This document shows, one piece after another, positions 3,489 through 56,827 of a stretch of 64,000 nucleotides of DNA. Below the pieces are notes generated by a model that ran no database searches, had not been told where the DNA came from, and was given only the letters and a program-made list of their open reading frames with translations. The stretch is from Anaeramoeba ignava BMAN (taxonomy: Eukaryota; Protista; Anaeramoebae), in the NCBI GenBank assembly GCA_028826165.1, contig JAPDFW010000098.1, positions 180,255-244,254 on the forward strand. Direction: 5' to 3'. Both the position numbers and the translations under genes were made by a program. Position 1 is the first letter of the stretch, and each line of letters begins with the position of its first letter.

Positions 3489-5516
3489 ATGTTTTCTTTA
3501 TCAAAAAAAGTAATTGATTCAAAATCTCCTTTTTCAAGATTATTTTCAAAAGTAGCAGTTGTTCTTTCAGGTTGCGGTAAGTAAATAATCTTCCTCATAA
3601 GATTCTCTTTATTAATTTATTACTTTATAGGTGTTTATGATGGATCAGAAGTAATAAAAAAAAGAATAAAAAAATAACTGAAAAATAACGGAAAAAAAAT
3701 TTATCAATTTTTACAAAAACAAAAACAATTACAATAAACAAAGATACAAGAAGCAGTGTCTACATTAATTCATCTTTCCAAAAATGGGGCTGAATATCAA
3801 TGTTTTGCTCCAAATAAAGAACAAATGCATGTTATTGATCATTTAAAAACTGAACCTACAAAAGAATCTCGAAATGTTTTAACTGAATCTGCTAGAATAG
3901 TTCGTGGAGATATAAAACCTCTTAATGATATTAATATTAAAGAAATGGATGCTATTATTTTTCCTGGTGGTTTTGGTGCTGCTAAAGTATTTATTTTTAC
4001 AAGAATTTGCAAAAAAAATTTAAGAAGATATTTATATTTATTTAAATATTTACATTTATATTTATTTAAATATTTACATTTATATTTATATTTATATTTA
4101 TATTTATATTTATATTTATATTTATATTTATATTTATATTTATATTTATATTTATATTTATATTTATATTTATATTTATATTTATATTTATATTTATATT
4201 TATATTTATATTTATATTTATATTTATATTTATATTTATATTTATATTTATATTTATATTTATATTTATATTTATATTTATATTTATATTTATATTTTTA
4301 TATTTATATTTTTATTTATATTTTATATTTATATTTATTTATATTTTATTTATATTTATATTTATATTTTATATTTATATTTATATTATTTATATTTATA
4401 TTTATATTTATATTTATATTTATATTTATATTTTATTTTATATTTATATTTATATTTTATATTTATATTTATTTTGATATTTATATTTATATTTATGTTT
4501 ATGTTTATGTTTATTTTATGTTTATATTTTATATTTCATTTATATTTATATTTTATTTATTTTTATATTTATATTTATATTTATTTAAATATTTATATTT
4601 ATATTTTATATTTATTTTTATATTTTTTATATATTTATATTTATATTTATTTTAATATTTATATATTTTTATATTTTTATTTTTATTTTAAATATTTTAT
4701 ATTCATTTATATTTATATTTTATATTTAAATATTTATATTTATATTTTATATTTATATTTTATATTTTTAATTTATATATTTTATATTTTTTTTTTATAT
4801 TTTATATTTTATGTTTATTTATGTTTATATTTTATTTATATTTATATTTTATATTTATATTTATATTTATATTTTTATTTTATATTTATATTTATATTTA
4901 TATTTATATTTATATTTATATTTATATTTATATTTATATTTATATTTATATTTATATTTATATTTATATTTATATTTATATTTATATTTATATTTATATT
5001 TATATTTATATTTATATTTATATTTATATTTATATTTATTTAAATATTTATATTTATATTTATTTAAATATTTATATTTATTTAAATATTTATATTTATA
5101 TTTATATTTATATTTATATTTATATTTATATTTATATTTATTATTAATAATAAAAGAATTTAAGCGATTTTGCAACAAAAGGAAAAGATTTCGTAGTTGA
5201 TACAGAAGTAGAGAAAATATTAAAAGAATTTCACAAACAAAAAAAACCTATTGGTTTAATATGTATTGCACCAGTTTTAGGAGCAAAAGTATTTAAAGAT
5301 TGTATAGTTACTATTGGAGATGATCCAGGAGTTAAAGATGTTATTCAATCCGTTGGCGCTCGTCATAAAGATTTGGATCCTGAAGAGATTTGTGTTGATG
5401 ATAAAAATTTAATTATCTCAACTCCTGCTTATATGAAGGCTCAAAAAATTAATGTTGTTTTTGATGGAATTGGTAAATTAGTCAAGAAAGTTCTTGAATT
5501 TACTGAAAAGAAATAA
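3489..5516 (+). CDS. ES1/ElbB (GATD3-like, DJ-1/PfpI superfamily) protein with N-terminal organellar presequence; exons 3489-3576, 3631-3650, 3744-3986, 5157-5516
   Basis: [60 protein letters not shown] and STPAYM are characteristic ES1/ElbB motifs. Includes a 20-nt microexon. Confidence 0.93.
4030..5145. repeat. (TATATT)n microsatellite in ES1 intron 3 (3987-5156)
   Basis: Same hexamer as in the OB-fold intron, directly visible. Confidence 0.92.
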
Positions 5517-19253: not shown

Positions 19254-22200
19254 ATGAAAAAAACAAAAAAACCGAAATATAAAAAAAATAAAAGAAAACA
19301 ACAAAAACAACAACAAAAAGCAAATGAAGCGAAAGAAATCAAAGAATTAGAACAACGACTAAAACTTGAAAAACCTCCGCCAACAGGAAATGATTTAAAA
19401 ATTAATAACGAAGAAGATGTGAATAATTTTCTTGAAAATTATAGAATTAGATATAAACCTGTAAAGACCTTTTCAGAATTGCCTATTTCTTTTAATACAA
19501 AAAAAGGTCTTTCTTTTAATAATTTTACTCAAATGACTGAAATTCAACGTGCTGCTATTCCTCATGCTTTGGTTGGAAGAGATCTTTTGGGTGCTGCTGT
19601 TACTGGTTCTGGAAAAACTTTGGCTTTTATTGTTCCTGTCTCTATCAATATTATAATTTAAATTACAATTATAATTACAATTATAATTATAATTAAAATT
19701 CATTTATAAATTTGAAATTATAATTACAATTACAATTATAATTAAAATTCATTTATAATTATAATTAAAATTAAAATTCATTTATAAAATTAAAAATAAA
19801 AATCAAAATTAAAATTAAAATTAAAATTAAAATTAAAATTAATATTAAAATTAAAATTAAAATTAAAATTAAAATTTAAAATTAAAATTAAAATTAAAAT
19901 TAAAATTAAAATTAAAATTAAAATTAAAATTAAAATTATAATTAAAATTAAAAATAAAAATAAAATTAAAATTAAATTCATTTATAAATTTGAAATTAAA
20001 ATTAAAATTAAAATTAAAAATTAAAAATTAAAATTAAAATTAAAATTAAAATTAAAATTAAAATTAAAATTAAAATTAAAATTAAAATTAAAATTAAAAT
20101 TAAAATTAAAATTAAAATTAAAATTAAAATTAAAAATAAAATCAAAATTAAAATTAAAATTAAAATTAAAATTAAAATTTAAATTAAAATTAATATTAAA
20201 ATTAAAATTAAAATTAAAATTAATATTAAAAATTAAAATTAAAATAAAATTAAAATTAAAATTTAAATTAAAATTAAAATTAAAATTAAAATTAAAATTA
20301 AAATCGGATAAAAAATTAAATAAAGATTTTAGAAAATCTTTACCGTTCACGTTGGACTTCTCTTGATGGAGTTGGAGCAATTATAATCTCACCAACTCGA
20401 GAATTAGCTCTTCAAATATTTACAGTTTTAGAAAAAGTAGGACAATTCCATTCTTTAAGTGCAGGATTAATAATAGGAGGAAAAGATGTAGATTTTGAAA
20501 AAGAAAGAGTTTCATTAATGTCTATTTTAGTTTGCACTCCTGGAAGATTACTTCAACATATGAATGAAACTTTTGGATTTAATTGTGAAAACTTAAAAAT
20601 GTTAGGTAATTTTTTTATTTAAAATAAACCTATTTTTGAAATAATTTTAATTAAAATAAATATTATAATAATTATTTAAAATTTATTTGAAATAATTTTG
20701 ATTAAAAAAATATTTAATATTTATTTTAATATTTTAATATTTATTTTAATATTTATTTTAATATTTATTTTAATATTTATTTTAATATTTATTTTAATAT
20801 TTATTTTAATATTTATTTTAATATTTATTTTAATATTTATTTTAATATTTATTTTAATATTTATTTTAATATTTATTTTAATATTTATTTTAATATTTAT
20901 TTTAATATTTATTTTAATATTTAAAATTTATTTAAAAAAATATTTAATATTTAAATAATTAAAAAAGTTTTGGATGAAGCTGATAGAATTCTAGATATGG
21001 GATTCGCAGAAACTATTAATGCTATCCTCGATAATCTTCCTTTACAAAGACAAACACTACTTTTTTCAGCAACTCAAAGAACTACTTTAACTCAATTAAT
21101 GAGATTGAATTTAAAAAACCCCGAATATATTTCTGTTCATGAACACGCAGAAAAATCAACACCTGAAAGACTATCTCAATTCTATATTACTTGCCAATTA
21201 GACGAGAAAATCAATGTTGTTTATTCCTTTATTAAAACCCATTTGAACCAAAAAATTCTAGTATTTTTAACAAGTTGCAAACAAGTGAAGTTTTTTTTCG
21301 AAGCTTTTCGCCATTTACAGCCAGGGATCCCATTGTTGCATATCCACGGGAATATGAAGCAAGCAACAAGAACAGAAATTCACGATGATTTCTGTAAAAA
21401 AAAGCGGGCCGTTATGTTCACAACAGATTTATCATCAAGAGGACTTGATTTTCCTGCTGTACATTGGGTAGTTCAAGTCGATTGTCCTGAAGACGTTGAT
21501 ACTTATATACATCGTGTTGGCAGAACTGCAAGAAATGAATCCTTTGGTAGCGCTCTTTTGATTTTATGCCAAAGTGAAGAGCCTGAAATGATATCTCTTT
21601 TGCAATTGCGCAAAATTGTTTTGACAAAAATCGAAATTAATGATGATAAAATGCTTTCAATTCAAACTGCTTTGCAAGGATTACTTTCAAAGTTTCCTCA
21701 ACTTAAATATTTTGCGGAAAGAGTAAGTTTTTCTTTAATTTAAATAAAAAGAAAATTTTTTTAAAAAAAGTGGAACAAAAAGTGGAACAAAAAAATTTTT
21801 TTATTTTAAAAAAGTGGAACAAAAAAATTTATTTATTTTTTCCTTTTTTTTTGATAATAGAGTTTCGTTACTTATGTTAGATCAATTTTCTTCCAGAAAA
21901 ATAAGAAAGTATTCCAACTTGAAAAATATCCATTAGATAAATATTCACAATCACTTGGTTTAGTTTCTACACCAAAAATCAAAGCGATAAAAAGAGAAAT
22001 TTCAAAGAAAAAAAGAAAAGAAATTGATATTGAAGAAAAACAAGAAAAAAAAGATCAAGAAAAACAAAAGCAAAAACAAGGAATTCCTCGTGATGAAAAA
22101 ATAATGTTGAGAGAAAATAGAGATGTTCTCTCAAAAGATTGGTTGAAATTGAAAGAATTAAATGAAAACGAAGAAGATTTTTTGACAAAAAAAGAAGATG

Positions 22201-23061: not shown

Positions 23062-24068
23062 TTATTTTTTTTCTTTATCTTGTCTTATTAAATTCATTAA
23101 CCATGACATTTCTTCTGCAACATCAATAATGTTTATTTTTCCTTCTTTATCTTCTTTTGAATCTCCTTTATTATAACCAACAGTTAACTATTTAAAAAAA
23201 ATCAAAATTAAAATTTTTGGATTTTGATTTTTAAATATTTATTTACATTCCAATAAGTTGAACCAGGAATAATAAATCCAAGTGGTGTAAAGAAATAATT
23301 TAATTGTGAAAATGTTCCTGCTGCTCCTCCTCTTCTATTTACTGCAATAGAAGCTCCAACTTTATGATAAAATGGACTATGACCTTTTTCATCTCTATTT
23401 AGTGCTGCAATCTTATTTTAATATTAATTTTAATTTTAATTTTAATTTTGATTTTAATATAAATTTTAATATTAATATTAATATTAATTTTAATATTAAT
23501 ATTAATTTTAAATTTAATTTTAATTTTAATTTTAATTAATTTTAATTTTAATTTTAATTTTAATTTAAATTTTAATTTTAATTTTAATTTTAATTTTAAT
23601 TTTAATTTTAATATGAATTTTAATTTTAATTTTAATTTTAAATTTAATTTTAATTATAATTTTAATTTTAAATTTAATTTAAATTTTAATTTTTGGATTG
23701 TAATTAAATGTTTAAAAAAAAGGAAAAAGAATTACAATTCCAACACGATCAATAAAAGTTTTAATTTGACCACTAGGACCAGCAACATAAACAGGAGAAG
23801 CAATAATAACACCATCAGATTCTTTAATTTTTTGATAACATTCATTAACACAATCATCTTCTATAACACATTTTTCAGTTTTATAACAACTTCTACAATC
23901 TAAACAACCTTGTGTTATTTTTTTTCCAATTTGGATACTTTCTGTTTTAATGTTTTTATCTTTAAAAACATCAAACATTGTTTCAATCATCCAATGTGTA
24001 TTCCCTCGATATCTTGGACTTCCGTTAACTGCAAATACTTTTAATGGTTTTTTTATTAAATCACTCAT
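23062..24068 (-). CDS. Iron-sulfur flavoprotein (Isf, NADPH-dependent FMN reductase family), copy 1, 3 exons
   Basis: NGSPRYRGNT, CLDCRSCYKTEKC (Cx2Cx2Cx5C), ASPVY, FIDR, RRGG and PGSTYWN motifs. GT-AG introns join the exons in frame. Confidence 0.92.
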
Positions 24069-27127: not shown

Positions 27128-29032
27128 ATGATTAAATTTCCAAAACTTTTTACAACCTTTTCATTCAATAATCCAATCAATTCAAATAAAATTGAAAACT
27201 ATTTAAATATTTCAACAAATCAATTTGATTATCAAAAAAAAACAAATATAAATGAATCAAGTTTAATAAGTAAACAAAATAAAGGAAAATTTAGATCAAA
27301 TTACAATCAAAAAAAGAATTTAAAAGGAATTGAATTAATTAAAGAAAAAAGAATGAAGAAAAAAACAAGTTTAGAAAAAGGAAATTCAAAAAGAATAAAT
27401 TTAAGAGATGATTATTTAGCAATTGATAAAGAAATGGATATTGATAATCAATTAATTCAAAATGATTTAAATGAAAATGATTTAATTCAAAGTGATTTAA
27501 TTCAAAATGATTTAATTCAAAATCAATTAATTCAAAATGATTTAATTCAAAATGATTTAATTCAAAGTGATTTAATTCAAAATGATTTAATTCAAAGTGA
27601 TTTAATTCAAAATGATTTAATTCAAAATGATTTAATTCAAAATGATTTAATTCAAAATGATTTAATTCAAAATGATTTAATTCAAAATGATTTAAATGAA
27701 AATGATTTAATTCAAAATGATTTAATTCAAAATGATTTAATTCAAAATGATTTAATTCAAAATGATTTAATTCAAAATGATTTAATTCAAAATGATTTTA
27801 ATATTCAAAAAAAACCATTCAAATCTAATATTGATAAACATGTTAGTCTTCCAACTTTTGATCACATTCCAAATAATTTTGGCTCTTATCCATTTAATAT
27901 CAATCAAAAAATTCATCAAAAAATCAAGAAAAAATTAGAAATCCTATTTGAAAAATTTCTTAATCAAACAAAAGAAGAATCAAAAAAATCATTCACTAAT
28001 TTTTGTACTTTCCAGATCAATTCAAATCAAATCGATCCAAATAAACGAGAACATTTAAAATCAAGATTCAACTCACTTTCTCAAATTAATTTTGCCAATC
28101 GCTGTTTAACAGATAACCATCTTGAAATGATGTTAGAAAAAGAAAAAAGCTTCCAAAAAGAAAAGATCCAAAATTCCAAAATTCACAATCAAAATTATCG
28201 GAATAAAATGATTGATTCCATTTCATTTTCTTGTCACGAACTTGATCTTACGAAAGAAACCTTTTATTTATCAATTGAATATTTTGAACGTTTGATTAAT
28301 TTAATTCCAAATAAAATTTCACATCAAGAAAAATTGTATCAAAACGCTTGCATATTACTTGCTGCTAAAATGAATGAAGAAGAGGTTCCTTCAATTTCTC
28401 TTTTTGCTCCTTTCTTTGAATTTGATCAAAATTACGATCAAAAATTGATCGAAGCTGAAAAGGAAATTTTAAAAATATTCAATTATAAATTAACAGATCC
28501 AACAATTAACAGTTTTTTGATTTATTTTTTGGATCGAGCAAGATGGTGTTTCCCAATAGAATCCTTTCCAAGCTTGGCTAAAGGTAGCATAGATTATGAT
28601 TTGGTTCACGAGTATTCAAGTATTATTTCACATATTCCGAAAAAGCATGATCAACTTCAAAATCCAAAAGATATTCAATTTGTGGAACGTTTTTTCAAGA
28701 TTCCAAAATTCCCAAAGGATCTGTATTGGATCATTTGTGAGATTATTAATCTTGCTCTTCGTGATGTTAAAAGCCTTCAATTCCAACCGAGTCTTATTGC
28801 AGCTGCTGCTTTTTCTTGTTATTTTCGTGATCCAAAACTTGTTGAATTAATTACAACTTTTTCTCAAGAAAATTTATTTCAATGTAAAAATTGGATTTCA
28901 AAATATGATCGTTCTCAAAGAAGAGCATTTAAAATCAATGATGAATTTCTTGATTTGATTAAAGAAGATGAAGTTTTTTTTCATTTTCATAACGTATCAG
29001 CTAATGAATTTATAAGAAGATTTTTAGATTAA
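27128..29032 (+). CDS. Cyclin (cyclin E/A-like box) with internal (NDLIQ)n repeat, intronless
   Basis: Cyclin box R..MID....L..ETFYLSIEYFER and ACILLAAKMNEE..P, plus a cyclin-E-like C-terminal helix pattern (EIINLALRDVKSLQFQPSLIAAAAF). Confidence 0.85.
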   Translation: MIKFPKLFTTFSFNNPINSNKIENYLNISTNQFDYQKKTNINESSLISKQNKGKFRSNYNQKKNLKGIELIKEKRMKKKTSLEKGNSKRINLRDDYLAIDKEMDIDNQLIQNDLNENDLIQSDLIQNDLIQNQLIQNDLIQNDLIQSDLIQNDLIQSDLIQNDLIQNDLIQNDLIQNDLIQNDLIQNDLNENDLIQNDLIQNDLIQNDLIQNDLIQNDLIQNDFNIQKKPFKSNIDKHVSLPTFDHIPNNFGSYPFNINQKIHQKIKKKLEILFEKFLNQTKEESKKSFTNFCTFQINSNQIDPNKREHLKSRFNSLSQINFANRCLTDNHLEMMLEKEKSFQKEKIQNSKIHNQNYRNKMIDSISFSCHELDLTKETFYLSIEYFERLINLIPNKISHQEKLYQNACILLAAKMNEEEVPSISLFAPFFEFDQNYDQKLIEAEKEILKIFNYKLTDPTINSFLIYFLDRARWCFPIESFPSLAKGSIDYDLVHEYSSIISHIPKKHDQLQNPKDIQFVERFFKIPKFPKDLYWIICEIINLALRDVKSLQFQPSLIAAAAFSCYFRDPKLVELITTFSQENLFQCKNWISKYDRSQRRAFKINDEFLDLIKEDEVFFHFHNVSANEFIRRFLD

Positions 29033-29253: not shown

Positions 29254-32200
29254 ATGTCTGAAAAAGAATCACAAAATGAATTAATAGAAACAGATACAGA
29301 TATAAATGAGAGTGAAAGTGAAAATGAAAATGAAAATAAAAAAATTCCAAAACGTTCTTGGCAAAAGCTTTTATTGTTGAGTATATGTTTAGCTGGTGTT
29401 ATATTTGCTTATGCTCAACAAATTGGTCAAATGACTGCATTTTTTCGTGAATTAGGTCTTTCTCAAACAGTTGTATCAATAATGTAATTAATTATTTATA
29501 AAATTATTTATAAAATTATTTATAAAATTATTTACAAAATTATTTATAAAATTAATTATAAAATTATTTATAAAATTAATTATAAAATTATTTATAAAAT
29601 TAATTATAAAATTAAATATAAAATTATTTATAAGTTTATTACAAGTTTATTTATAAAATTATTTATAAAATTATTTATAAGTTTATTTATAAGTTTATTT
29701 ACAAGTTTATTTATAAGTTTATTTATAAAATTATTTACAAAATTATATATAAAATTATTTATAAAATTATTTATAAAATTATTTATAAAATTATTTATAA
29801 AATTATTTATAAAATTAAATATAAAATTATTTATAAAATTATTTATAAAATTATTTATAAAATTATTTATAAAATTATTTATAAAATTATTTATAAAATT
29901 ATTTATAAAATTTTATAAAATTATTTTATAAAATTATTTATAAAAAATATAATTATTTATAAAATTATTTATAAAATTATTTATAAAAATTATTTATAAA
30001 ATTTATTTATAAAATTATTTATAAAATTATTTATAAAATTATTTATAAAATTATTTTAAAATTAATAAAAATTATTTATTATTTATAAAAATTATTTATA
30101 AAATTATTTACAAAATTATTTATAAAATTATTTATAAAATTATTTATAAAAATTATTTATAAAATTATTTATAAAATTATTTACAAAATTATTTATAAAA
30201 TTATTTATAAAATTATTTACAAGTTTATTTATAAGTTTATTTACAAAATTATTTACAAGTTTATTTACAAGTTTATTTACAAGTTTATTTACAAGTTTAT
30301 TTACAAGTTTATTTACAAATTTATTTATAAGTTTATTTATAAAATTATTTATTTATATAAAATTATTTATAAAATTATTTATTTATAAAATTATTTATAA
30401 AATTATTTACAAGTTTATTTTAAAATTAAGTTTATTTATAAAATTATTTACAAGTTTATTTACAAAGTTTATTTACAAGTTTATTTACAAGTTTATTTTA
30501 CAAGTTTATTTTATAAAATTATTCATTTATAAATTTATTTAAGTTTATTTATAAGTTTATTTTTAAAAGTTTATTTTAAAATTTATTTATAAAATTATTT
30601 ATAAAATTATTTATAAAATTATTTATAAAATTATTTATAAGTTTATTTACAAGTTTATTTACAAGTTTATTTACAAGTTTATACAAGTTTACAAAAGTTT
30701 ATTTATAAAATTATTTATAAAATTATTTATAAGTTTATTTATAAAATTATTTATAAAATTATTTATAAGTTTATTTATAAAATTATTTATAAAATTATTT
30801 ATAAAATTATTTATAAAATTATTTATAAAATTATTTATAAAATTATTTATAAGTTTATTTATAAGTTTATTTATAAAATTATTTACAAGTTTATTTACAA
30901 GTTTATTTACAAGTTTATTTATAAATTTAATTATAAAATTATTTATAAAATTATTTATAAAATTATTTATAAAATTATTTATAAAATTATTTATAAAATT
31001 ATTTATAAAATTATTTATAAAATTATTTACAAAATTATTTATAAAATTATTTATAAAATTATTTATAAAATTATTTATAAAATTATTTATATAAAATTAT
31101 TTATAAAATTATTTATATAATAGATGGGTTGCTGGTCCAATAAGTGGATTTTTAGTACAACCCCTTGTTGGAATTTGGAGTGATCGGTAAAAAAAATTTA
31201 ATTGAGTTATTAATCAAAATTAATAAAAAAATATATAAAACTAGATCCACAAGTAGATGGGGAAGAAGACGTCCATTCTTACTTGGAGGTGCTATTTTTG
31301 TGGTTTTATCCGAAATTTTGGTTTCTAATTCACGTGATTTAGGATCTAAAATGGGTGACACACCATCTCATAATCCAGCAGCAATTACTCTTGCTGTAAT
31401 CGGATTTTGGATTATGGATCTTGCTAATAACACACTTCAAGGTCCAAGTAGAGCTTTATTAGCTGATTGGGCACCTGATTACCAACAAAAACTTGGAAGC
31501 GCGTTTTTTTCTCTTTGGGTTGGTGTTGGAAATGTTGGTGGTTATTTTTCTGGTTCTGTTGACTGGTAATGTCAGTTTGAAAAAAAAAAGGAAAAAAAAA
31601 TTTTTTTTCTTTTCAGTTTTTGATCAAATTTGATCAAAAGGTGAAAAAAAAGTTTTATTCTTTTAAATTGGAAAATCTTTTTTCTTGATTCTGAATTCTT
31701 TTTATTTAGGTCGAGTTATTTTTCCACTTTTGAAACGAGTAATTGCAAAAATGCTTGTGCAAATTTAAGATTTTCTTTTATGATTGGAGGAATTATAATT
31801 TTAACAACAAATCTAATCACACTTTTTGCAATTAAAGAAGAAAGATTTATAAAAAGCAAAAATAAGAACAAAAAAGCGCCGAATCCATTTACTATGTTAT
31901 TCAAAGGAATTACAAAGCAACCGAAATGGTTCAAATTGGTTAATCTTGTGAATTTTTTAAGTTGGATTGGTTGGTATTGTTTTTTTATGTATGGAACAGA
32001 TTGGTTTGGAAGTAGGATTTATAACGGAAAACCCAAAAATCCATGTCCCGATTATCCAAAACATTCGGATTGTTTAAAGTATGAAAAGGGAGTAGCAAGA
32101 GGATCACTTGCATTAACATTTGAATCAGGATTATGTTTAATACTTTCGCCATTTGTGCCCAGAATTATTGACAAAATTGGGATCAAAATTACATATTTTA

Positions 32201-32676
32201 TCGGACAAGTTGTTTTTGGAATTGTTTTATGTTTGACAGTTTTTGTGAGAAATGAAGCTGTTGCAATGATAATGTTTGCTTTTGTTGGAATTCCTTTAGC
32301 AACAACAATGATTATTCCATATACGATTATAGGCAAATTAGCGCCTAAAAAAGATAATGGTTTATTTATGGGAATTCGTAACTTATTTGTTGTTATTCCT
32401 CAATTAATTGTTTCACTTACAATGGGTGCTTTGGTTTCTCATCCTTTCAAAGGAAATTCTTCTTGGGCAATGTTTGTTGGTGGTATTTTTGAGTTTGTTG
32501 GTGCTGGTTGTGTTTTTCTGTTGATTGTTGATAAATCTGAACTTTCTGTTGAAGAAAAGAAAAAATTATTAGAAAATGAAAATGAAAATGAAAATGGAAA
32601 TGAAAATGAAATTGAAAATGAGATTGGAATTGGAATTGGAATTGGAATTGAAAATGAGAATGAAAATGAAAATTGA
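29254..32676 (+). CDS. Sucrose/H+ symporter-like MFS transporter (SUT/SLC45 family), 4 exons
   Basis: [49 protein letters not shown], TDWFG and GIRNLFVVIPQL motifs. Confidence 0.92.
29490..31120. repeat. (AAAATTATTTAT)n / (AAGTTTATTTAC)n 12-mer satellite in SUT intron 1
   Basis: Visible tandem 12-mers. The same unit family occurs in introns at about 7215-7725 and 12850-13365. Confidence 0.9.
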
Positions 32677-34466: not shown

Positions 34467-37196
34467 ATGAAAAACGTTTTCAAAACAAAGAATAACGTAC
34501 AATTAAACTTATTAAAAAATGAAACAAAAAAACAAAAGAAGAATAATTTAGAAAAACAAAAAAATCAAAAAAATCAAAACAAATTTGAAAAAGAATTATA
34601 TTTTCCAAATCAAAATGAAGATTTTGCAAAAAAAACACCATTTATTTCTTTTAACGAACAACCGGAAATAAATAAAAGTTTTGAAAGCAATTCAAATAAA
34701 ATGGATAATATAATTCCACGTGTTTTTGATTATAAAAAATCTCAAGAAGAAACAAATGCTAAATGTAAAGATGATAAATGTCAAATTGAAGGAAAAATTG
34801 ATAAAAAACCAAAAATTAATACTAATGCAAATGTTAATGTCAATTTTACTTCATTTTTGTTAATGAATAATCATAAATCAAATGTTTATTTTTATGATAA
34901 TTCGTTTAATTATTATGAAAAATTGAACAAAAATGAAAATGAAATTGAAAATGAAATTGAAATTGAAAATGAAATTGAAATTGAAAATCAAAATCAAAAT
35001 CAAAATCAAAATCAAAATCAAAATCAAAATCAAAATCAAAATCAAAATCAAAATCAAAATCAAAATGAAAATCAAAATCAAAATCAAAATAAAAATCAAA
35101 ATCAAAATCAAAATAATAAAAATCAAAATCAAAATCAAAATCAAAATCAAAATAAAAATCAAAATCAAAATCAAAATGAAATTGAAATTGAAAATCAAAA
35201 TGAAAATGAAAATCAAAATCAAAATCAAAATCAAAATGAAAATCAAAATCAAAATGAAATTGAAATTGAAAGTAAAAATCAAATTAAAAATCAAAATCAA
35301 AATCAAAATCAAAATCAAAATCAAAATCAAAATCAAAATGAAATTGAAAGTAAAAATCAAATTAAAAATCAAAAAATAAAAATAAATACCAAAAAAACAC
35401 AAAAAAATACTAACATAAAAAATAACGAACAAAAAAACAAAACTCAAATTAATATCAAAAAAGAAGAAGAGGAAAAAGAAGAAAAAGAAGAAAAAGAAAA
35501 AACGGAATTTTATGAAAAAGCATTTGAAGAGATGAAAAAATTATCAGAAGAAGTATTTCGAATATCAAAAAACGGAAAAGAAGAAAGAAAAGAAGAAAGA
35601 AAAAGAAGAAAAAGAAGAAAAAGAAGAAAAAAAAGAAGAAAAAAAAGAAGAAAAAAAAGAAGAAAAACGAGACAGTTTTAAATATGCAATATGGAAAAAA
35701 GAGCAAAAATATTTACATGAGGATATAAGTATGAAGCTTCATGCGGAGGTGATGGATTTCTATGAACATATAAAACCGAGAGGCGCTGAAATTATATTAC
35801 GAAATGAAGTATTAAAACGAGTAGAAAAATTTATAAAGGAAATTTGGAATGAAGCAGAAATTATATTATATGGATCAAGTGGAAATGGTACATTTTTACC
35901 AAATTCGGATATTGATATTACAATTATTCTTAATAATGATATTTCTAATGACAGGTTAATTAAAAAACTTAGTCAAGAAATTCTTTCTTCTAAAAAAGAA
36001 ATCTTCGCCGTTAATCAAGTTATTGAGACTGCGAAAATCCCTATTATCAAGTTGTTTGATAAACAGTCTCAAATGTTGATTGATATTTCTTTTAATGCTC
36101 CTTCTGGTTCGAAAAGTGTTCAATTGATTAGGAAATATATTAAGATATATCCTCCTTTACAACCTTTACTTTTTGTTTTGAAAAGGTAATTAAAATTAAA
36201 ATTTATTTAAAAATTTATTTTGAAATTAATTTTGAAATTAAAATTAAAATTTATAAAATTTATAGATTCCTCCAAGTTTCTAGACTTAATGAACCATTCC
36301 ATGGTGGAATAGGAAGTTATCCTCTAATCCTCATGCTTGTATCACATTTCCAACTTCATCCAAGTGCTCAAAATCAAAAATATACAACAAATTTAGGATC
36401 ACTTTTAATAGATTTTTTTAATCTTTATTCAAATTTCAATTACATAACAACTGGAATTAATGTTTTGGAAAACGGATCCTATTTTTCTAAACAAGAACTT
36501 GGCTTTTTAAATCCAAATCAACCTGAAATACCAGTTATTATTGATCCTTTAAATCCAACTCTTAATGCTTCAAGAAGTTCTTACTCAATTATTGATTGCA
36601 TTGACTCTTTTAAACTTGCTTTTGATTTACTTTCAAATGATAAAGGTCTCAAATCTATTCTTATTCCTTATAAATTCGAGAAATATTATAATCTTTTATC
36701 TTTTGGAATAATCCCTTTTAATTCTTTTACTCCAAATTATCAAAAAAATTTCAATTTTTATCATCCATATTCAAATCAATCTAAAAATTCAAAAGAAAAT
36801 TTTTTCCAAATTAAAAATTATTCAAATTCAAGAACAAATTATTCAAATTATTCAAATTATTCAAATTATGCAAATTATTCAAATTATTCAAATAATCATG
36901 TTTCTTATCAAAAAAATATTGTTGTTGATTCACGTTCATTTGAACCAAATTCTCGCAAAATAATTTGCAATTATAATCAAAATCAAAATCAAAATCAAAA
37001 TCAATATCAAAATCAAAATCAAAATCAAAATCAAAATCAAAATCAAAATCAAAATCATAAATTTTTTCCAAATCGTAATTATTTTGGTGGAAAATTCCCA
37101 AATTTAGAAGAAGAAGCTCCTCGTAGTCAAAGATATTCAAATAATAGAGAACAAAAAAGACATCGTTATAAAAAATCAAACAGATTTTTCAATTAA
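34467..37196 (+). CDS. Non-canonical poly(A) polymerase Trf4/PAPD5 (TENT4)-like, long QN-rich N-terminus, one intron (about 36186-36265), frameshift in an A-run near 35600
   Basis: LHAEVMDFY, YGS...LPNSDID, AKIPIIK, DISFN, RLNEPFHGGIGSY, NLGSLLIDFF and IDPLNP..NASRSS motifs. Confidence 0.88.
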
Positions 37197-42599: not shown

Positions 42600-43000
42600 A
42601 ATTAAAATTAAAATTAAAATCAAAATTAAAATTAAAATTAAAATTAAAATTAAAATTAAAATTAAAATTAAAATTAAAATTAAAATTAAAATTAAAATTA
42701 AAATTAAAATTAAAATTAAAATTAAAATTAAAATCAAAATCAAAATTAAAATTAAAAATTAAAATTAAAATATTAAAATTAAAAAAAAATTAAAAATTAA
42801 AATTAAAATTAAAATTAAAAATTAAAATCAAAATCAAAATCAAATCAAAATTAAAATTAAAATCAAAATTAAAAAAATTAAAATTAAAATCAAAATTAAA
42901 ATTAAAATTAAAATTAAAATCCAAAATTAAAATTAAAATTAAAATTAAAATTAAAATTAAAATTCCAAAATCATTTTTTTCATTTTTTTTCTTTTCAAAA

Positions 43001-44779
43001 ATGAATGATTGTTTATTTTTTGGTGATAATCAATTACCAAAACTTATCAAAAATGAACCAAATTCAATAATAAAACCAATTCAATTTAAATTTAAAAATG
43101 AAAATGAAAATGAAAATGAAATTGAAAATGAAATTAAACAAATTGCAATTTGTTATTTTTCAACAATTTTCCTTTTTAAAAATGGAAAAGCAATAGAATA
43201 TTTAAATGGAAATGATCCAAATCAAAATCCTTATAAAATCCAAATTGAAAATATTCAAAAAGTAACTGTTGATTCTATAAATGAAGCTATTTTAACAAAA
43301 GAAAGAAATGTATTTGCCAAAGGAAAAGATATTAATCCAAATAATATAAAAGAATTTATCAATATTTCATCATTAATTGAAGATAAAAATGATAGAGTAA
43401 TTGAAGATATTGTTTCTGGAGAACATTCATTTTACTTATTAACTTCAAATCAAAATGTTTATGGAATTGGTTCAAATCAATATGGCCAACTTGGTTTTGA
43501 TTCTGAAACACTTGAAAAAACAGAAAAACCAATTTTAATGATGAAAAATGTTTCTAAAATATTTTCAGGAGATTCTTCAACTCATGTTTTTCTTTTAAAT
43601 TCAAATCAAGGATTATTTGGATGCGGTGAGAATGAATATGGTCAACTTGGATTAGGAAAATCAAAAGAAGACAAAAAAATCCAAAAATTAACCAAAATCC
43701 AAAATATTCCAAAAGGTAAAATAATTGATATTCAATGTGGAAATTATCATTCAATAATGTTGATTGAAAATGAAGATGAAAATCAAAATCCAAAAAGAAA
43801 ACTTTATTCAATTGGAAATTGGTTTTATAATGGACTTGGCAAAGATGGATATACTTATGAATTTACTGAAATCAAATCATCTTTATTTGAAAATGACTAT
43901 ATTCGTGAATTTTCTGTTGGAAATGGTGATACTTTGATTTTAACATCCAATTCAAAATTAATAGTATTTGGAAGTAATTCTCATGGTCAATTAGGAACTG
44001 GAGATACAAAACATCAACTAATTCCTATTCAAATTGAACTTCCTAAATTAAGATTTAATGAAGATATTTCCAATTATCATGTTCTTTGTAGAAATAATAA
44101 ATCATTTCTTTATTGGTCTTCTCCTTTTCTTTCTTCTTTTTCCAATCTTGAAGAAGATTTGATTAATCTATTTCGAAGAAAAGAATTTTGTGATATTTCA
44201 TTTAAAACCGAAGATGGAGAAATAATTTCAGCTCATAAATTAATATTACAAGCTATAATTGGACAAGATGATCAAATTGAAAAACTTCAAGAATTAATTT
44301 CAAATAAATCATCTAAAGAATCAAATCAAATATTTGAAATGATTTATTCAAACAATTCCAAAATAAATCCAAAATTATATGAAGAAATTAAAATTGATTT
44401 TAATTTATTTGTATCAATAGAAGAATCAATGAAAGAATTAATTGAATTTGAAAATGAAAAAGATTTTATAATTGAAAGAAAAGAAAAACAATATAAATTT
44501 CCTAAATTAATATTAGTAATGAGAAGTAAATTATTCCGAGAAAAATTTTTATCAGTAACAGAAAGTGATTCTAATAAAGTTACAGATTATAGTGAATTAA
44601 GTGATGAATCATTTCAAATATTAGAATATTGGATTTATTCAAATCAAATTAAAGAAGAAATTCAAATTACAAAAGAGATAATTAATGAAATTCAAATTGG
44701 AATTGGTTATTTTCAATTAAATCAAACAAATCCAAATTTATTGGATTTATTAATTAAGAAATTTAAAAATCAAAATTAA
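43001..44779 (+). CDS. RCC1-BTB-BTB protein, copy C
   Basis: Intact paralogue. Confidence 0.9.
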   Translation: MNDCLFFGDNQLPKLIKNEPNSIIKPIQFKFKNENENENEIENEIKQIAICYFSTIFLFKNGKAIEYLNGNDPNQNPYKIQIENIQKVTVDSINEAILTKERNVFAKGKDINPNNIKEFINISSLIEDKNDRVIEDIVSGEHSFYLLTSNQNVYGIGSNQYGQLGFDSETLEKTEKPILMMKNVSKIFSGDSSTHVFLLNSNQGLFGCGENEYGQLGLGKSKEDKKIQKLTKIQNIPKGKIIDIQCGNYHSIMLIENEDENQNPKRKLYSIGNWFYNGLGKDGYTYEFTEIKSSLFENDYIREFSVGNGDTLILTSNSKLIVFGSNSHGQLGTGDTKHQLIPIQIELPKLRFNEDISNYHVLCRNNKSFLYWSSPFLSSFSNLEEDLINLFRRKEFCDISFKTEDGEIISAHKLILQAIIGQDDQIEKLQELISNKSSKESNQIFEMIYSNNSKINPKLYEEIKIDFNLFVSIEESMKELIEFENEKDFIIERKEKQYKFPKLILVMRSKLFREKFLSVTESDSNKVTDYSELSDESFQILEYWIYSNQIKEEIQITKEIINEIQIGIGYFQLNQTNPNLLDLLIKKFKNQN

Positions 44780-44920
44780 AATTAAAATCAAAATTAAAAT
44801 CAAAATTAAAATTAAAATCAAAATTAAAATCAAAATTAAAATTTAAATTAAAATTAAAATTAAAATTAAAATTAAAATTAAAATTCCAAAATCATTTTTT
44901 CATTTTTTTTCTTTTCAAAA

Positions 44921-46684
44921 ATGAATGATTGTTTATTTTTTGGTTCAAATCTAAATCCAATTCTTATCAAAAATGAACCAGATAAAATAACAAAACCAAT
45001 CCAATTTAAATTTGAAAATGAAAATGAAAATGAAAAACAAATTAAACAAATTTCATCAAGAGCATTCTCAACAATTTTCCTTTTTAAAAATGGAAAAGCA
45101 ATAGAATATTCAAATGAAAAAGATTCAAAACAAAATCCTTATAAAATCCAAATTGAAAATATCCAAAAAGTAACTGTTAGTTCTCAAAATGTAGCTATTT
45201 TAACAATAGAAAGAAATGCATTTGTAAAAGGAAGAGATATTAATCCAAATAATCCAAGTGAATTTATCAATATTTCATCATTAATTGAAGATACAAATGA
45301 TAGAATAATTCAAGATATTGTTTCTGGAGTTTTTTCAATTTACTTATTAACTTCAAATCAAAATGCTTATGGAATTGGTTCAAATGGATATGGTCAACTT
45401 GGTTTTGATTCTGAAACACTTAAAAAAACAGAAAAACCAATTTTAATGATGAAAAATGTTTCTAAAATATTTTCAGGAACTTATTCAGATCATGTTTTTC
45501 TTTTAAATTCAAATCAAGAATTATTTGTATGCGGATATAACGAATATGGTCAACTTGGATTAGGAGAATCAAGAAGAAAAGAAATCAAAATCCAAAAATT
45601 AACCAAAATCCAAAATATTCCAAAAGGCAAAATAATTGATATTCAATGTGGATATGGTTATTCAATAATGTTAATTGAAGATGAAAATGAAAATCCAAAA
45701 AGAAAACTTTATTCATGTGGAAATTATCGATATAATGGACTTGGCAAAAATGAAGATACTTATAAATTTACTGAAATCAAATCATCTTTATTTGAAAATG
45801 ATTATATTCTTGATATTTCTGTTGGATGTTATCATACTTTGATTTTAACTTCTAATTCAAAATTAATAGTATTTGGAGATAATAGATATGGTGAATTAGG
45901 AGCTGGAGATACAAAACATCAATCAATTCAAATTCAAATTGAACTTCCTAAATTAAGATTTAATGAAGATATTTCTAATTATCATCTTTCTTGTGGCTTT
46001 TATGAATCATTTCTTTATTATTCTCCTCCTTCTTTTTCCAATATTGAAGAAGATTTGATAAAATTATTTGAAAGAAAAGAATTTTGTGATATTTCATTTA
46101 AAACCAAAAATGGAGAAATAATTGAAGCTCATAAATTAATATTGAAATATAGATTAAATCAAAATGAAAATCAAATTGAAATTGAAAAACTTGAAGAAAT
46201 TATTTCAAATAAATCAATTAAAGAATCAAATCAAATATTTGAAATGATTTATTCAAATAATTCCAAAATAAATCCAAAATTATATGAAGAAATTAAAATT
46301 GATTTTAATTTATTTGTATCAATAGAAGAATCAATGAAAGAATTAATTGAATTTGAAAATGAAAAAGATTTTATAATTGAAAGAAAAGAAAAACAATATA
46401 AATTCCCTAAATCAATATTAATAATGAGAAGTAAATTATTCCGAGAAAAATTTTTATCTGTAACAGAAGATAAATCTAATAAAGTTACAGATTATAGTGA
46501 ATTAAGTGATGAATCATTTCAAATATTTGAATATTGGATTTATTCAAATCAAATTAAAGATGAAATTCAAATTACACAAGAAATTATTGATGAAATTCAA
46601 ATTGGAATTGATTATTTTCAATTAAATCAAACAAATCCAAATTTATTTGATTTATTAATTAATAAATTTAATAATCAAAATTAA
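44921..46684 (+). CDS. RCC1-BTB-BTB protein, copy D
   Basis: Intact paralogue. Confidence 0.9.
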   Translation: MNDCLFFGSNLNPILIKNEPDKITKPIQFKFENENENEKQIKQISSRAFSTIFLFKNGKAIEYSNEKDSKQNPYKIQIENIQKVTVSSQNVAILTIERNAFVKGRDINPNNPSEFINISSLIEDTNDRIIQDIVSGVFSIYLLTSNQNAYGIGSNGYGQLGFDSETLKKTEKPILMMKNVSKIFSGTYSDHVFLLNSNQELFVCGYNEYGQLGLGESRRKEIKIQKLTKIQNIPKGKIIDIQCGYGYSIMLIEDENENPKRKLYSCGNYRYNGLGKNEDTYKFTEIKSSLFENDYILDISVGCYHTLILTSNSKLIVFGDNRYGELGAGDTKHQSIQIQIELPKLRFNEDISNYHLSCGFYESFLYYSPPSFSNIEEDLIKLFERKEFCDISFKTKNGEIIEAHKLILKYRLNQNENQIEIEKLEEIISNKSIKESNQIFEMIYSNNSKINPKLYEEIKIDFNLFVSIEESMKELIEFENEKDFIIERKEKQYKFPKSILIMRSKLFREKFLSVTEDKSNKVTDYSELSDESFQIFEYWIYSNQIKDEIQITQEIIDEIQIGIDYFQLNQTNPNLFDLLINKFNNQN

Positions 46685-47034
46685 AATTAAAATTAAAATT
46701 AAAATTAAAATTAAAATTAAAATTAAAATTAAAATTAAAATTAAAATTAAAATTAAAATTAGAATTAAAATTAAAATTAAAATTAAAATTAAAATTAAAA
46801 TTAAAATTAAAATTAAAATCAAAATTAAAATTAATATTAAAATTTAAAATTAAATTAAAATTAAAAATTAAAAAATTAAAATCAAAATCAAAATTAAAAT
46901 CAAAATTAAAATTAAAATTTAAATCAAAATTAAAATTTAAATCAAAATCAAAATTAAAATCAAAATCAAAATTAAAATTAAAATTAAAATTAAAATTAAA
47001 ATTAAAATTAAAATTAAAATTAAAATTAAAAATA

Positions 47035-47985
47035 TGAGAATAGATTTAAATTAAATACTAAATTGAAATTAATTTTATTTTATATTTATAAATAAAATTA
47101 ATACACAAAATATATTATTATTAATTAATTTCTTGATATTTAATTAATAAAATATTTTAATTAATTTTTAAATAGAATGGAAATAGATTTAAATTAAGTA
47201 TTAATTTCAAATTAATTTTTATTTTATATTTATAAATAAAATTAATTATTAGAAAATATATTATTATTAATTAATTTATTGATATTTAATTAATAAAATA
47301 TTTTAATTAATTTTTAAACAAAATGGAAATAGATTTTAAATTAAATATTAATTTGGAATTAATTTTTATTTTATATTTATAAATAAAATTAATACAAGGA
47401 AATATATTATTATTAATTAATTTTTGATATTTAATTAATAAAAATATTTTAATTAATTTTTAAACAAAATGAGAATAGATTTGAATTAAATATTAATTTG
47501 GAATTAATTTTTATTTTATATTTATAAATAAAATTAATACTAAAAATATATTATTATTAATTAATTTTTGATATTTAATTAATAAAATATTTTAATTAAT
47601 TTTTAAAACAAAATAGAAATAGATTTGAATTTAATATTAATTTGAAATTAATTTTTATTTTATATTTATAAATAAAATTAAAAACACAAATATATTTTTA
47701 TTAATTAATTTTATTGATATTTAATTAATAAAATATTTTAATTAATTTTTAAATAGAATGGTAATAGATTTAAATTAAATATTAATTTGGAATTAATTTT
47801 TATTTTATATTTATAAATAAAATTAATTATTAGAAATATATTATTATTAATTAATTTTTTAATATTTAATTAATAAAATATTTTAATTAACTTTTAAACA
47901 AAATGGGAATAGATTTAAATTTAATATTAATTTGAAATTAATTTTTATTTTATATTTATAAATAAAATTAATACTAAAAAATGGG
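47035..47985. repeat. Tandem array of ~145 bp monomers (about 6.5 copies) upstream of Rac
   Basis: TAGATTT anchors at 47041, 47184, 47330, 47476, 47620, 47765 and 47910. Confidence 0.92.
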
Positions 47986-48191
47986 ATAAATAAATGGAAA
48001 AAATTTAAATAAAAAATAAAAAAGAAATTTTTTCGAATGAAAAAAAAATTTTAACAAAAAATTTAAATTAAAAAATAAAATAAAAATAAAAAGAAAAAAT
48101 TTAATTAATTTTATTTTCATTCTTTTTCTTTTTTAATAAATTTTTATTTTTAAATTTAAATTTTTTTAAAAACAAAAACAAAAACAACAAA

Positions 48192-48770
48192 ATGCAATCA
48201 ATTAAATGTGTAGTTGTTGGAGATGGAGCAGTTGGTAAAACATGTTTATTAATATCATATACAACAAATGCATTTCCAGGAGAATATATACCAACAGTAT
48301 TTGATAATTATTCAGCCAATGTAATGGTAGATGGAAAACCAATCAATTTAGGATTATGGGATACAGCAGGACAAGAAGATTACGATAGATTAAGACCATT
48401 ATCATATCCACAAACGGATGTATTTTTGATTTGCTTTTCATTGATTTCACCTTCTTCTTTTGAAAACGTTAGAGCTAAATGGGTTCCTGAAATTCATCAT
48501 CATTGTTCTAATGTTCCTATGATTCTTGTTGGTACTAAGCTTGATTTGAGAGATGACCAAGATACTATCATGAAACTTGAAGAAAAAGGTTTATCTCCTA
48601 TTAGTTATCAAGCTGGTATGGATATGGCTAAAGAAATTAAAGCGGTTAAATATTTGGAATGTTCTGCTTTGACTCAAAAAAATTTGAAAACTGTTTTTGA
48701 TGAATCTATTCGTGCTGTTCTTTCTCCTGTTAAACCTGATAAACCAAAAAAGAAATGCTCTATTTTATAA
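48192..48770 (+). CDS. RAC1: Rac-family Rho GTPase, intronless, CAAX box CSIL
   Basis: [42 protein letters not shown] and ECSA motifs; polybasic tail and CSIL. Confidence 0.97.
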
Positions 48771-48921
48771 TTTTCTTTTTTTTTTAAAAACAAAAACAAA
48801 ACAATTTTTTTAATAAAATATCTTGTTATTGAAAAATCAAAATCAAAACAATTTTTTTATTTTTTTATTTTTGGAATTCTTTTTTTTTTTTGTTCCACTT
48901 TTTTCTTTTTTTAAAAAAACA

Positions 48922-50700
48922 AATTTATTATTTAAATATTTAACATAAAAATATAAAAAATAAGAATAGATTTAATTTAATATTTAATTTATAAATTAAT
49001 TTAAAAATATAATTTAATATTTAATTTTATTATTAAAATAATAATTTAATGTTTTAGGTTTAAATATTTTATTATTTAAATATTTAACATATAAATATAA
49101 AAAATAAGAATAGATTTAATTTAATATTTAATTTATAAATTAATTTAAAAATATAATTTAATATTTAATTTTATTATTAAAATAATAATTTAATGTTTTA
49201 TATTTAAATATTTTATTATTTTAAATATTTAACAAATAAATATAAAAAATGGGAATAGATTTAATTTAATATTTAATTTATAAATTAATTTAAAAATATA
49301 ATTTAATATTTAATTTTATGTTTAAAATAATAATTTAATGTTTTATATTTAAATATTTTGTTATTTAAATATTTAAAATAAAAATATAAAAATAAGAATA
49401 GATTTAATTTAATATTTAATTTATAAATTAATTTAAAAATATAATTTAATATTTAATTTTATTATTAAAATAATAATTTATTGTTTTTATATTTAAATAT
49501 TTTATTATTTAAATATTTAACATAAAAATATAAAAAAATAAGAATAGATTTAATTTAATATTTAATTTATAAATTAATCCCAAAAATATAATTTAATATT
49601 TAATTCTATTATTAAAATAGTAATTTAATGTTTTAGATTTAAATATTTTATTATTTAAATATTTAACATATAAATATAAAAATAAGAATAGATTTAATTT
49701 AATATTTAATTTATAAATTAATTTAAAAATATAATTTAATATTTAGTTTTATTATTAAAATAATAATTTATTGTTTTAGATTTAAATATTTTATTATTAA
49801 AAATTTAACATATAAATATAAAAATAAGAATAGATTTAATTTAATATTTAATTTAGAAATTAATTTAAAAATATAATTTAATATTTAATTTTATTATTAA
49901 AATAATAATTTAATGTTTTAGATTTAAATATTTTATTATTTAAATATTTAACATAAAAATATAAAAAATAAGAATAGATTTAATTTAATATTTAATTTAT
50001 AAATTAATTTAAAAATATAATTTAATATTTAATTCTATTATTAAAATAATAATTTAATGTTTTAGATTTAAATATTTTATTATTTAAAATATTTAACATA
50101 TAAATATAAAAATAAGAATAGATTTAATTTAATATTTAATTTATAAATTAATTTAAAATATAATTTAATATTTAATTTTATTATTAAAATAATAATTTAT
50201 TGTTTTAGATTTAAATATTTTATTATTTAAATATTTAACATATAAAAATGAAAAATGAAAATAGATTTAATTTAATATTTAATTTATAAATTAATTTAAA
50301 AATATAATTTAATATTTAATTTTATGTTTAAAATATTAATTTAATGTTTTAAATTTAAATATTTTATTATTTAAATATTTAACATATAAATATCAAAAAT
50401 AAGAATAGATTTAATTTAATATTTAATTTATAAACTAATTTAAAAATATAATTTAATATTTAATTTTATTATTAAAATAATAATTTAATGTTTTAGATTT
50501 AATTATTTTATTATTTAAATATTTAACATAAAAATATAAAAATGGAAATAGATTTAATTTAATATTTAATTTATAAATTAATTTAAAAATATAATTTAAT
50601 ATTTAATTTATAAATTAATTTAAAAATATAATTTAATAATTAATTTTATGTTTAAAATAATAATTTATTGTTTTAGATTTAAATATTTTATTATTTAAAA
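48922..50700. repeat. Tandem array of ~144 bp monomers (about 12 copies) downstream of Rac
   Basis: TAGATTT anchors at 48967, 49111, 49256, 49399, 49545, 49689, 49831, 49975, 50119, 50262, 50406 and 50549. Confidence 0.93.
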
Positions 50701-52830: not shown

Positions 52831-53299
52831 AAATTAATTAATAATAAGAAAATCAAACTTTTTTTTTTAATTTTTTTTTTCAAAATTTAATTCAATTTTA
52901 ATTTACTTTTAATCAAATTAATTTCTTTAAAATAATAAATAAGAAACAAATTTAATTTTAAATAATTTAATTTTAATTTAAAATATTTATTAAAAATTTA
53001 ATTAATAAAAATAATCCAAAAAAAAAATAATAAATTTTAAAAATTGAATATTTTTAATATAATAAATAAAAATAAAAATTGAAAATAGAAATTAATAATA
53101 ATTAAATTTAAATTCATTAATTAAAATATTAAAATAAAAAAAATCAAATAAAATTTATTATTAATTAATATTTAAATATTAATAAATTATAATCAAAATC
53201 AAAAATAGAATAATTAGTAAATTATTTTTTTAGAAAGTTTATCTTATTCAATCATGTTAAATTCAATTTATTTAAAATTTTTTAATTTTTTAATTTTAT

Positions 53300-53795
53300 T
53301 TTTTAATATATTTTATTATAATTAAAATTGGAATAATAAATAATTAAAAATATTAATATAATAAATAAAAATATTATATCAAATTAAATTAAAATAAATT
53401 TAAATTAAATTATTATTAAATATTATTAAAATTAAATATTTATCTTTATTAAAATATTTATTCCACTTTTTTTAATATATTTTATTATAATTAAAATTGG
53501 AATAATAAATAATCAAAAATATTAATATAATAAATAAAAATATTATTTCAAATTAAAATAAAATAAATTTAAATTAAATTATTATTAAATATTATTAAAA
53601 TTAAATATTTATTTTTATTAAAATATTTATTCCACTTTTTAATATATTTTATTATAATTAAAATTGGAATAATAAATAATTAAAAATATTAATTTAATAA
53701 ATAAAAATATTATTTCAAATTAAAATAAAATAAATTTAAATTAAATTATTGTTAAATATTATTAAAATTAAATATATATCTTTATTAAAATATTT
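53300..53795. repeat. Tandem array of ~168 bp monomers (about 3 copies)
   Basis: TTGGAATAATAAATAAT at 53328, 53497 and 53664; TTCCACTTTT at about 53461 and 53630. Confidence 0.88.
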
Positions 53796-53807: not shown

Positions 53808-54376
53808 CAATTTTATTAAATTATTGGGAATTATTTTATATTATTTTAAATAAAGAAATATTAATAAAATATATAAAATATGATTAATTTTAAATTTAAT
53901 TATTTAATATTCTTTATTCTATTTTGAAATAAATTAATTAAAAATATTTTATTAATTTTATTAAATTATTGGGAATAATTTTATATTATTTTAAATAAAG
54001 AAATATTAATAAAATATATAAAATATAATTAATTTTAAATTTAATTATTTAATATTCTTTATTCCATTTTTGAAATAAATTAATTAAAATATTTTATCAA
54101 TTTTATTAAATTATTGGGAATAATTTTATATTATTTTAAATAAAGAAATATTAATAAAATATATAAAATAAAGAATTAATTTTAAATTTAATTATTTAAT
54201 ATTCTTTATTTCATTTTTGAAATAAATTAATCAAAATATTTTATTTATTTTATTAAATTATTGGGAATAATTTTATATTATTTTAAATAAATAAATATTA
54301 ATAAAATATATAAAATATAATTATTTCTAAATTTAATTATTTAATATTCTTTATTCCATTTTTGAAATAAATTAAT
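53808..54376. repeat. Tandem array of ~145 bp monomers (about 4 copies)
   Basis: TTATTGGGAA at 53821, 53966, 54111 and 54258. Confidence 0.9.
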
Positions 54377-56641: not shown

Positions 56642-56827
56642 TAATCAAAATTAAAATTAAAATTAAAATTAAAATTAAAATTAAAATTAAAATTTAAAAA
56701 TTAAAATTAAAATTAAAATTAAAATTAAAATTAAAATTAAAATTCAAAATTAAAATTAAAATTAAAATTAAAATTAAAATTAAAATTAAAATTCCAAAAT
56801 CATTTTTTCATTTTTTTCTTTTCAAAA

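Follow-up and report, generated by a model that had tools for sequence, protein, structure and literature searches.

The silent sites of a Rac1-like gene of Anaeramoeba ignava BMAN change abruptly from A to T in the middle of the coding sequence. The gene lies in the window that we analysed, a stretch of 64,000 nt (assembly GCA_028826165.1, contig JAPDFW010000098.1, positions 180,255 to 244,254). On the top strand of this window, coding DNA is T-rich to the left of a long spacer and A-rich to its right, over a few hundred bases. The polarity is the same for intron and intergenic spacers, and where the island is short, as in Rac, one arm gives way to the other in a step. Our preferred reading, to which we give a probability of about 0.4, is that this mirror skew records, over the long term, the loss of adenines from a strand that is repeatedly single-stranded beside long AT-rich repeat spacers.

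The switch in the Rac gene

The gene, its two arms, its unique flanks and the neighbouring arrays are as follows.

48192..48770, + strand: Rac1-like small GTPase coding sequence, single exon, 192 aa (Pfam Ras, E 5e-54)
48192..48449: A arm of Rac, A at 30/36 four-fold sites, codons 17-86 without T
48450..48770: T arm of Rac, T at 39/41 four-fold sites
47981..48100: unique sequence to the left, A-rich (80 A against 29 T) like the A arm
48771..48923: unique sequence to the right, T-rich (80 T against 54 A) like the T arm
47026..47980: AT-rich tandem array on the left, 6.6 copies of a 145-bp unit
48924..50609: AT-rich tandem array on the right, 11.7 copies of a 144-bp unit

The protein belongs to the Rac/Rho small GTPases, with 100% identity over 92% of its length to P0008 of A. 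ignava, 86% identity to P0015 of A. flamelloides and 80-87% identity to named Rac1 proteins. The four-fold sites are A30 T4 C1 G1 (n=36) up to codon 86 and T39 G1 A1 (n=41) from codon 87 onward, exactly the counts that an earlier note on this DNA had made by hand. The optimal split separates codon 86 (third position 48449) from codon 87 (third position 48452), with a Fisher p of 2.8e-15, and its strength was matched in 0/500 label permutations. The parallel shift of Leu from TTA to TTG and CTT was also borne out (six TTA in codons 19-70; afterwards six TTG, four CTT and two TTA), except that TTG sets in slightly ahead of the split, at codons 79 and 84.

Likelihood profiles favour a step. No misfit was found among the 35 sites within 150 nt of the split, an outcome with a probability of 0.047 under simulated logistic gradients with a 10-90% width of 90 nt and of 0.003 with a width of 180 nt; the step in Rac is less than about 90 nt wide (10-90%). 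Rac is an extreme case in that it has long arrays on both sides, with the switch 470 and 474 nt away from them. The switch lies 1.5 nt from the array midpoint, or 30 or 62 nt from it under other edge definitions.

The earlier note had allowed for Rac being a chimera, joined from two paralogues that differ in codon usage. Among the matches listed (32/147 pieces), the same runs do contain many Rac/Rho paralogues whose third positions differ, and the paralogue contigs listed there have T at several sites where Rac has A. However, among the matches listed, a run X5 contig covers 48192-48739 and a run X1 contig covers 48386-48770 with two differences each, the two halves of the protein both have their match in a single A. 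flamelloides Rac (98% and 77%), and the same switch is present in six other genes, so that a chimera is not needed and either a chimera or an assembly join is largely refuted and very improbable. Among the matches listed, runs X12 and X6 contributed at Rac only pieces that are short or divergent, which say nothing about strain or habitat. As a homologue control, 80 homologous loci were taken, of which 14 were skipped (no intact frame with the motifs), 8 were untestable and 58 were tested. None of the 58 tested loci shows an A-to-T step; two reach p <=0.01, both of them T-to-A, and the top LLR is 7.6 vs 33.3 in Rac. Because contigs of two samples cross the switch and 0/58 homologues show it, the switch is not the product of an assembly join, and it is not a general trait of Rac genes.

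The main X1 and X5 contigs have two differences from the window in common, apparently T to C at 48431 in the left arm and A to G at 48677 in the right, which may be alleles, strain differences or assembly errors. They are silent and would be consistent with the mirror if the contig bases are derived, but two sites prove nothing. Rac as an intein target site was rejected; neither GTPase nor Rac appears in the main text of PMC10710043.

Recurrence in other exons

Exon-level tests covered the 64-kb window and used exon models drawn by hand without RNA support; of these exons, one was discarded for an in-frame stop, one was trimmed and one was truncated at a frameshift, and where stated the duplicates fmn2 and RCC copies 2-7 were excluded. 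A change-point test was applied to the 44 exons with at least 15 A/T four-fold sites, with a cut-off at permutation p <=0.01. Eight of the 44 exons have a significant switch, all A-then-T, and removal of one duplicate leaves seven genes, on both strands. Besides Rac, they are the following.

35620..36185, + strand: Cid1/poly(A) polymerase-like gene exon, switch ~35926 (0/1000 permutations)
23736..24068, - strand: flavodoxin/FMN-reductase-like exon 1 (named by eye), switch ~23910
25474-25806: duplicate of the flavodoxin/FMN-reductase-like exon 1, switch ~25654
5157..5516, + strand: DJ-1/ElbB-like gene, last exon (named by eye), switch ~5331 (p 0.002)
19254..19637, + strand: DEAD-box helicase gene exon 1, switch ~19503 (p 0.002)
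31710..32676, + strand: MFS transporter gene, last exon, switch ~32208
27128..29032, + strand: cyclin gene, single exon, main switch ~27821, with more local A/T alternation

This recurrence supports the proposal of the earlier note that the skew is a DNA-level feature symmetric under reverse complementation. Its suggestion that every coding island carries the skew did not hold, as 36/44 exons have no significant switch. Over the exons of the window, a positional skew is present when halves are pooled (non-redundant exons without Rac: first halves 444A/378T, second halves 347A/513T, p 2e-8), but absent from a per-exon sign test on the 40 non-redundant exons (23 exons against 16 with one tied, p 0.34).

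The switches lie at 0.36-0.65 of exon length and cluster mid-exon (p 0.0003 vs uniform). They fall at the midpoint between repeats only in Rac, dj1 and fmn2 (0.50, 0.44, 0.45), the others lying at 0.01-0.79; an exact midpoint rule was rejected, as it fails in other genes and the Rac fit depends on the edge definition. A GC peak at the switch was likewise rejected, as no GC3 peak is present, and inspection by eye revealed no motif common to the seven switches. Long exons have local A|T units 150-350 nt from their 3' end, and A zones are also found deep in long exons, distant from any upstream spacer.

None of the seven tandem RCC1-BTB paralogues (38934-46684 and 54807-60567, with hexamer repeats between them) has a significant switch, and their ends are A-rich beside repeats. 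Derived changes among these paralogues and between fmn1 and fmn2 were too few. In this cluster two copies are apparently frameshifted and a 3' fragment lies at ~54395-54690. Both the first RCC1-BTB gene and the BTB-TLDc gene are preceded by a 73-bp direct repeat (71 identical; 37309-37381 and 38862-38934), which points to a recent duplication in which the promoter was reused. Elsewhere, low-complexity coding repeats have apparent frameshifts at 10014 and ~35600, possibly homopolymer assembly errors.

Nature of the bias

All eight four-fold families flip, with Leu CTN flipping weakly (2A/8T to 1A/28T). Sites with only C/G neighbours flip as strongly as the rest (37A/3T to 11A/65T; in Rac 12/0 to 0/11). 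Because all families flip, C/G-neighbour sites included, neither tRNA choice nor tract building accounts for the pattern. Two-fold sites, at which a transversion is not silent, show no significant shift (A/G p 0.12, C/T p 0.19). Leu TTA/TTG shifts (p 2e-6), as does Ile ATA/ATT (p 0.04, ATA down); TTA yields to TTG and CTT, and Arg AGA yields to CGT. No flip was found between C and G at four-fold sites (8C/20G left vs 12C/13G right).

The contexts in which the bias is weak are a preceding T on the left and a following A on the right. TpA is avoided in the window (o/e 0.50). Because these exceptions are reverse complements of each other, they fit a mirror bias on top of TpA avoidance. An amino-to-keto reading (A/C then G/T), suggested by decile trends, was rejected as not significant with independent switch points. 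For background, the A. ignava genome is 80.65% A+T and its introns are 91.86% A+T (PMC11550330).

Dependence on introns, spacers and repeats

The introns in the window are bimodal, with lengths of either 54-150 nt or 324-2686 nt, the long ones being full of 5-15-bp AT repeats (examples at 413-3020, 4024-5141, 17123-18966 and 29490-31121). Over 10 introns of at least 250 nt, the composition is reset from 33A/113T in the last 120 nt before the intron to 75A/66T in the first 120 nt after it (p 1e-7), and the direction agrees in 9/10. Over 19 short introns no reset was found (99/135 vs 85/121, p 0.85). Long intergenic spacers have similar edges: beside them, gene starts have 46A/10T (5 edges) and gene ends 11A/51T (4 edges) with Rac included, and 26/6 and 10/34 without Rac. 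The longer the spacer, the stronger is the edge bias (rho 0.35 and p 0.002 over 75 edges, with Rac and duplicates excluded; rho 0.26 over 85 edges when the RCC copies are included), and gene starts respond to the length of the untranscribed upstream spacer.

The T bias peaks within 200 nt of a downstream low-GC block (22A/94T, beyond it 31A/49T), and the A bias past an upstream low-GC block is weaker (67A/46T); in the same way, the T bias preceding long introns exceeds the A bias following them. When bases were predicted without Rac, the gain in log-likelihood (dLL) was 15.1 for exon half, 4.9 for the half set by the nearest low-GC block and 0.8 for the half of the spliced CDS. Short-intron skew does not track the flanking silent sites (rho 0.29, p 0.23, 19 introns).

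In six intergenic tandem arrays the repeat unit is nucleosome-sized (143-169 bp, 90-96% identity), and comparison between the six gave no clear best match.

25928-26646: intergenic tandem array
32804-34285: intergenic tandem array
47026-47980: intergenic tandem array, left of Rac
48924-50609: intergenic tandem array, right of Rac
53299-53795: intergenic tandem array
53809-54392: intergenic tandem array

Among the copies of these six arrays there is no asymmetric change (A>T/T>A 8/11 in left and 11/11 in right halves, p 0.76), and within 16 arrays the AT skew shows no gradient. The 9-mer AAAGTGGAA occurs 31 times in the window vs 0.8 expected (e.g., 25997-26498, 32860-34149, 48893 and 63166-63636), mostly once per 143-169-bp array unit, and also in introns and behind stop codons; it is possibly a protein-binding site or a relic repeat.

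Promoters have a small A-then-T flip of their own, the pooled A share being 0.65 at -100 to -80 and 0.32 at -40 to -20 (160 nt before the start codons of 15 genes, with three start coordinates a few bases off). A TCATTTT motif, which we take to resemble the Trichomonas initiator, lies 11-63 nt ahead of the ATG in 14/17 starts.

Origin of the mirror skew

In the adenine-loss reading, forks would stall at the repeats, or breaks and repair patches would arise there. 5'-to-3' excision or uncoupling would then bare the strand running towards the repeat, adenines on the bared strand would be lost, mainly to T, and only sites where the loss of A is silent could follow. Depurination with A inserted opposite gives A-to-T, and deamination gives A-to-G. 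If Anaeramoeba has lost Rev1 and Pol zeta, insertion of A opposite abasic sites would be favoured. Pol zeta is reported absent in Anaeramoeba in the accessible part of PMC10710043. In the portion of that paper's Dataset that was covered, the A. ignava cells are empty for Rev1, OGG1, MutY, XPC, XPA, CSA and CSB, which is not proof of absence, and filled for Mre11, Rad50, Exo1, Rad51, mismatch repair, ORC1-5 and Cdc6. The same portion has empty cells for Spo11 and Dmc1 in Anaeramoeba (for DMC1 also PMC12722695, as far as available), again not proof of absence.

The adenine-loss reading is supported because the skew is reset at long introns and not at short ones, because intergenic edges behave alike and edge bias rises with spacer length, because every four-fold family flips, C/G-neighbour sites included, because two-fold sites without a silent transversion show no significant shift while Leu and Ile do, because the context exceptions mirror each other, and because the unique flanks of Rac carry the same sign. 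It is weakened because the arrays show neither asymmetric change nor an AT-skew gradient, because exon half outpredicts the nearest low-GC block, because the RCC1-BTB ends are A-rich by repeats and lack a switch, and because two opposing gradients would not yield a step of less than 90 nt. Further points against it are that A zones lie deep in long exons, that short-intron skew is uncorrelated and that the switch coincides with the between-repeat midpoint in Rac, dj1 and fmn2 only.

The mirror could instead be a selected chromatin signal, in which silent sites would be adjusted to let remodellers that read bulk strand composition move nucleosomes from the AT-rich spacers onto exons. The polarity, T to the left and A to the right of a depleted region, agrees with the nucleosome-free regions that RSC reads in yeast, according to the accessible parts of PMC8347975 and PMC4212969; the array units are nucleosome-sized, and the arrays lack mutational asymmetry. 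However, the match with yeast is weak because mammals have the opposite polarity (PMC4212969, in part), and the signal would require selection on nearly all silent sites. The known form of such a signal is the homopolymer tract, whereas here isolated sites flip equally and the halves of Rac are not enriched in matching tracts (left A5+ 0, T5+ 1; right A5+ 3, T5+ 1). A chromatin code of poly(A)/poly(T) tracts, one form of the positioning code raised in the earlier note, is thus unsupported. We consider a selected signal unlikely, and retain it because the polarity matches yeast, though without tracts.

A process anchored at the centre, such as a fixed replication start or a recurrent nick or break mid-exon from which strand-specific errors run outward both ways, would explain the sharp step and the clustering of switches mid-exon. 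It is also consistent with the local A|T units near the 3' end of long exons, with the listing of ORC1-5 and Cdc6 for A. ignava and with the upward TA jump, whose sign is the one seen at origins (PMC2817419). In contrast, four-fold sites have no C-to-G jump, the arms fade within a few hundred bases and stay outside the arrays, and origins would have to be spaced about 1-2 kb apart. The lack of a motif shared by the seven switches (by eye), the lack of a GC3 peak at them and the empty Spo11 and Dmc1 cells also speak against it. Such a process is doubtful in our estimate, and we keep it because the step is too sharp for two fading gradients.

Selection at the transcript level, in which U-rich sequence before and A-rich sequence after long introns or gene ends would aid splicing, 3'-end choice or translation, agrees with exon half as the top single predictor and with the larger T bias before long introns. 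We regard it as quite improbable. The coding regions of Rac and cyclin are intronless, gene starts track a spacer that is untranscribed, position in the spliced CDS predicts almost nothing and no A-to-T step occurs in the 58 Rac homologues tested. RNA fold-back of the A and U halves was rejected, as three exons showed no excess stability (z -1.2 to +1.6, 40 shuffles each).

Comparison with known systems

Fungal 5'/3' skews, GRINS and origin jumps all resemble the present skew, yet each has a defining feature that is lacking here; the comparisons use the accessible parts of the papers concerned. The fungal 5'/3' GC skew (McLean-Tirosh) is likewise an intragenic skew that changes sign and reaches four-fold sites and flanks, and its cause is open. 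It is, however, a gradual GC change that occurs once per gene with a flat AT skew, whereas an A/T step is seen here. Neither a C-rich 5' and G-rich 3' half (C/G 8/20 and 12/13) nor a flat AT skew was found in the window, and the long-intron resets and the dLL of 0.8 for spliced-CDS half differ from one gradient per gene. GRINS (Nivina et al. 2021, PMC8256042) likewise have intense, abrupt skews that are strongest at third positions, with an unknown mutator. They are duplicated regions with correlated GC and TA skews, whereas the present skew is a TA-only mirror in unrelated genes and is tied to non-coding repeats; the correlation of GC and TA skews is absent here. As for duplication (>500 bp nearby, >80% identity), no second Ras-family protein was found in the 24 window ORFs scanned, and Rac paralogues outside the window match in pieces at >=80% among the matches listed.

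Skew jumps at origins and CpG islands (Polak and Arndt 2009, PMC2817419) likewise run bidirectionally from a GC-richer island, with A to the left and T to the right. They are long-range and include a GC jump, whereas the present skew is near-complete, TA-only and a few hundred bases long; Rac has the upward TA jump without the upward GC jump or the long-range persistence. Directional poly(dT)/poly(dA) of yeast (PMC4212969, PMC8347975) likewise has T to the left and A to the right of a presumably nucleosome-poor AT-rich stretch, but as tracts in promoters, whereas single silent bases in coding DNA are involved here. If the spacers are assumed to be nucleosome-poor, the window has the arrangement of the poly(dA:dT) turnstile, with T on the 5' and A on the 3' side of a depleted region, but the signal is not carried by homopolymer tracts.

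Smagulova et al. in 2011 reportedly found a purine-to-pyrimidine skew at mouse recombination hotspots, purine-rich on the left and changing sign at the centre. That skew requires Spo11 breaks, and Spo11 and Dmc1 are not listed for Anaeramoeba in the available Dataset; the central GC gain of meiotic hotspots has no counterpart here, as there is no GC3 peak.

The literature searched contains no description of an exon-scale A/T mirror, though subscription papers and supplements may contain one. The main text of PMC11550330 has neither 'skew' nor 'codon', that of PMC10710043 has no 'skew', and the accessible part of an A. pumila preprint has 'skew' solely in the legends of circular-genome GC-skew plots.

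Significance

Ordinary codon bias falls far short of a near-complete A/T strand asymmetry that flips within ~90 bp in a nuclear gene as highly conserved as Rac. In this DNA, codon usage is a function of the distance to non-coding repeats, which matters for work on codon bias and dN/dS. The question addressed is whether intragenic mirror skews arise by mutation or selection, and whether they are anchored at the edges or at the centre; because the repair inventory is unusual and the signal is pure, a direct test of the origin of such skews (fungal, GRINS) is possible in this system.

It is conceivable, though on balance unlikely, that exons between long AT-rich repeats are mirror units of strand-specific DNA processing with a fixed centre, produced by an undescribed process that also acts in other lineages. 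If so, silent sites would locate the centre to <90 bp, and the genome sequence alone would chart the start or stop sites of replication or repair, in a eukaryote without Rev1, Pol zeta or Spo11. Mirrors of A(/C) then T(/G) would then be traces of one process across lineages.
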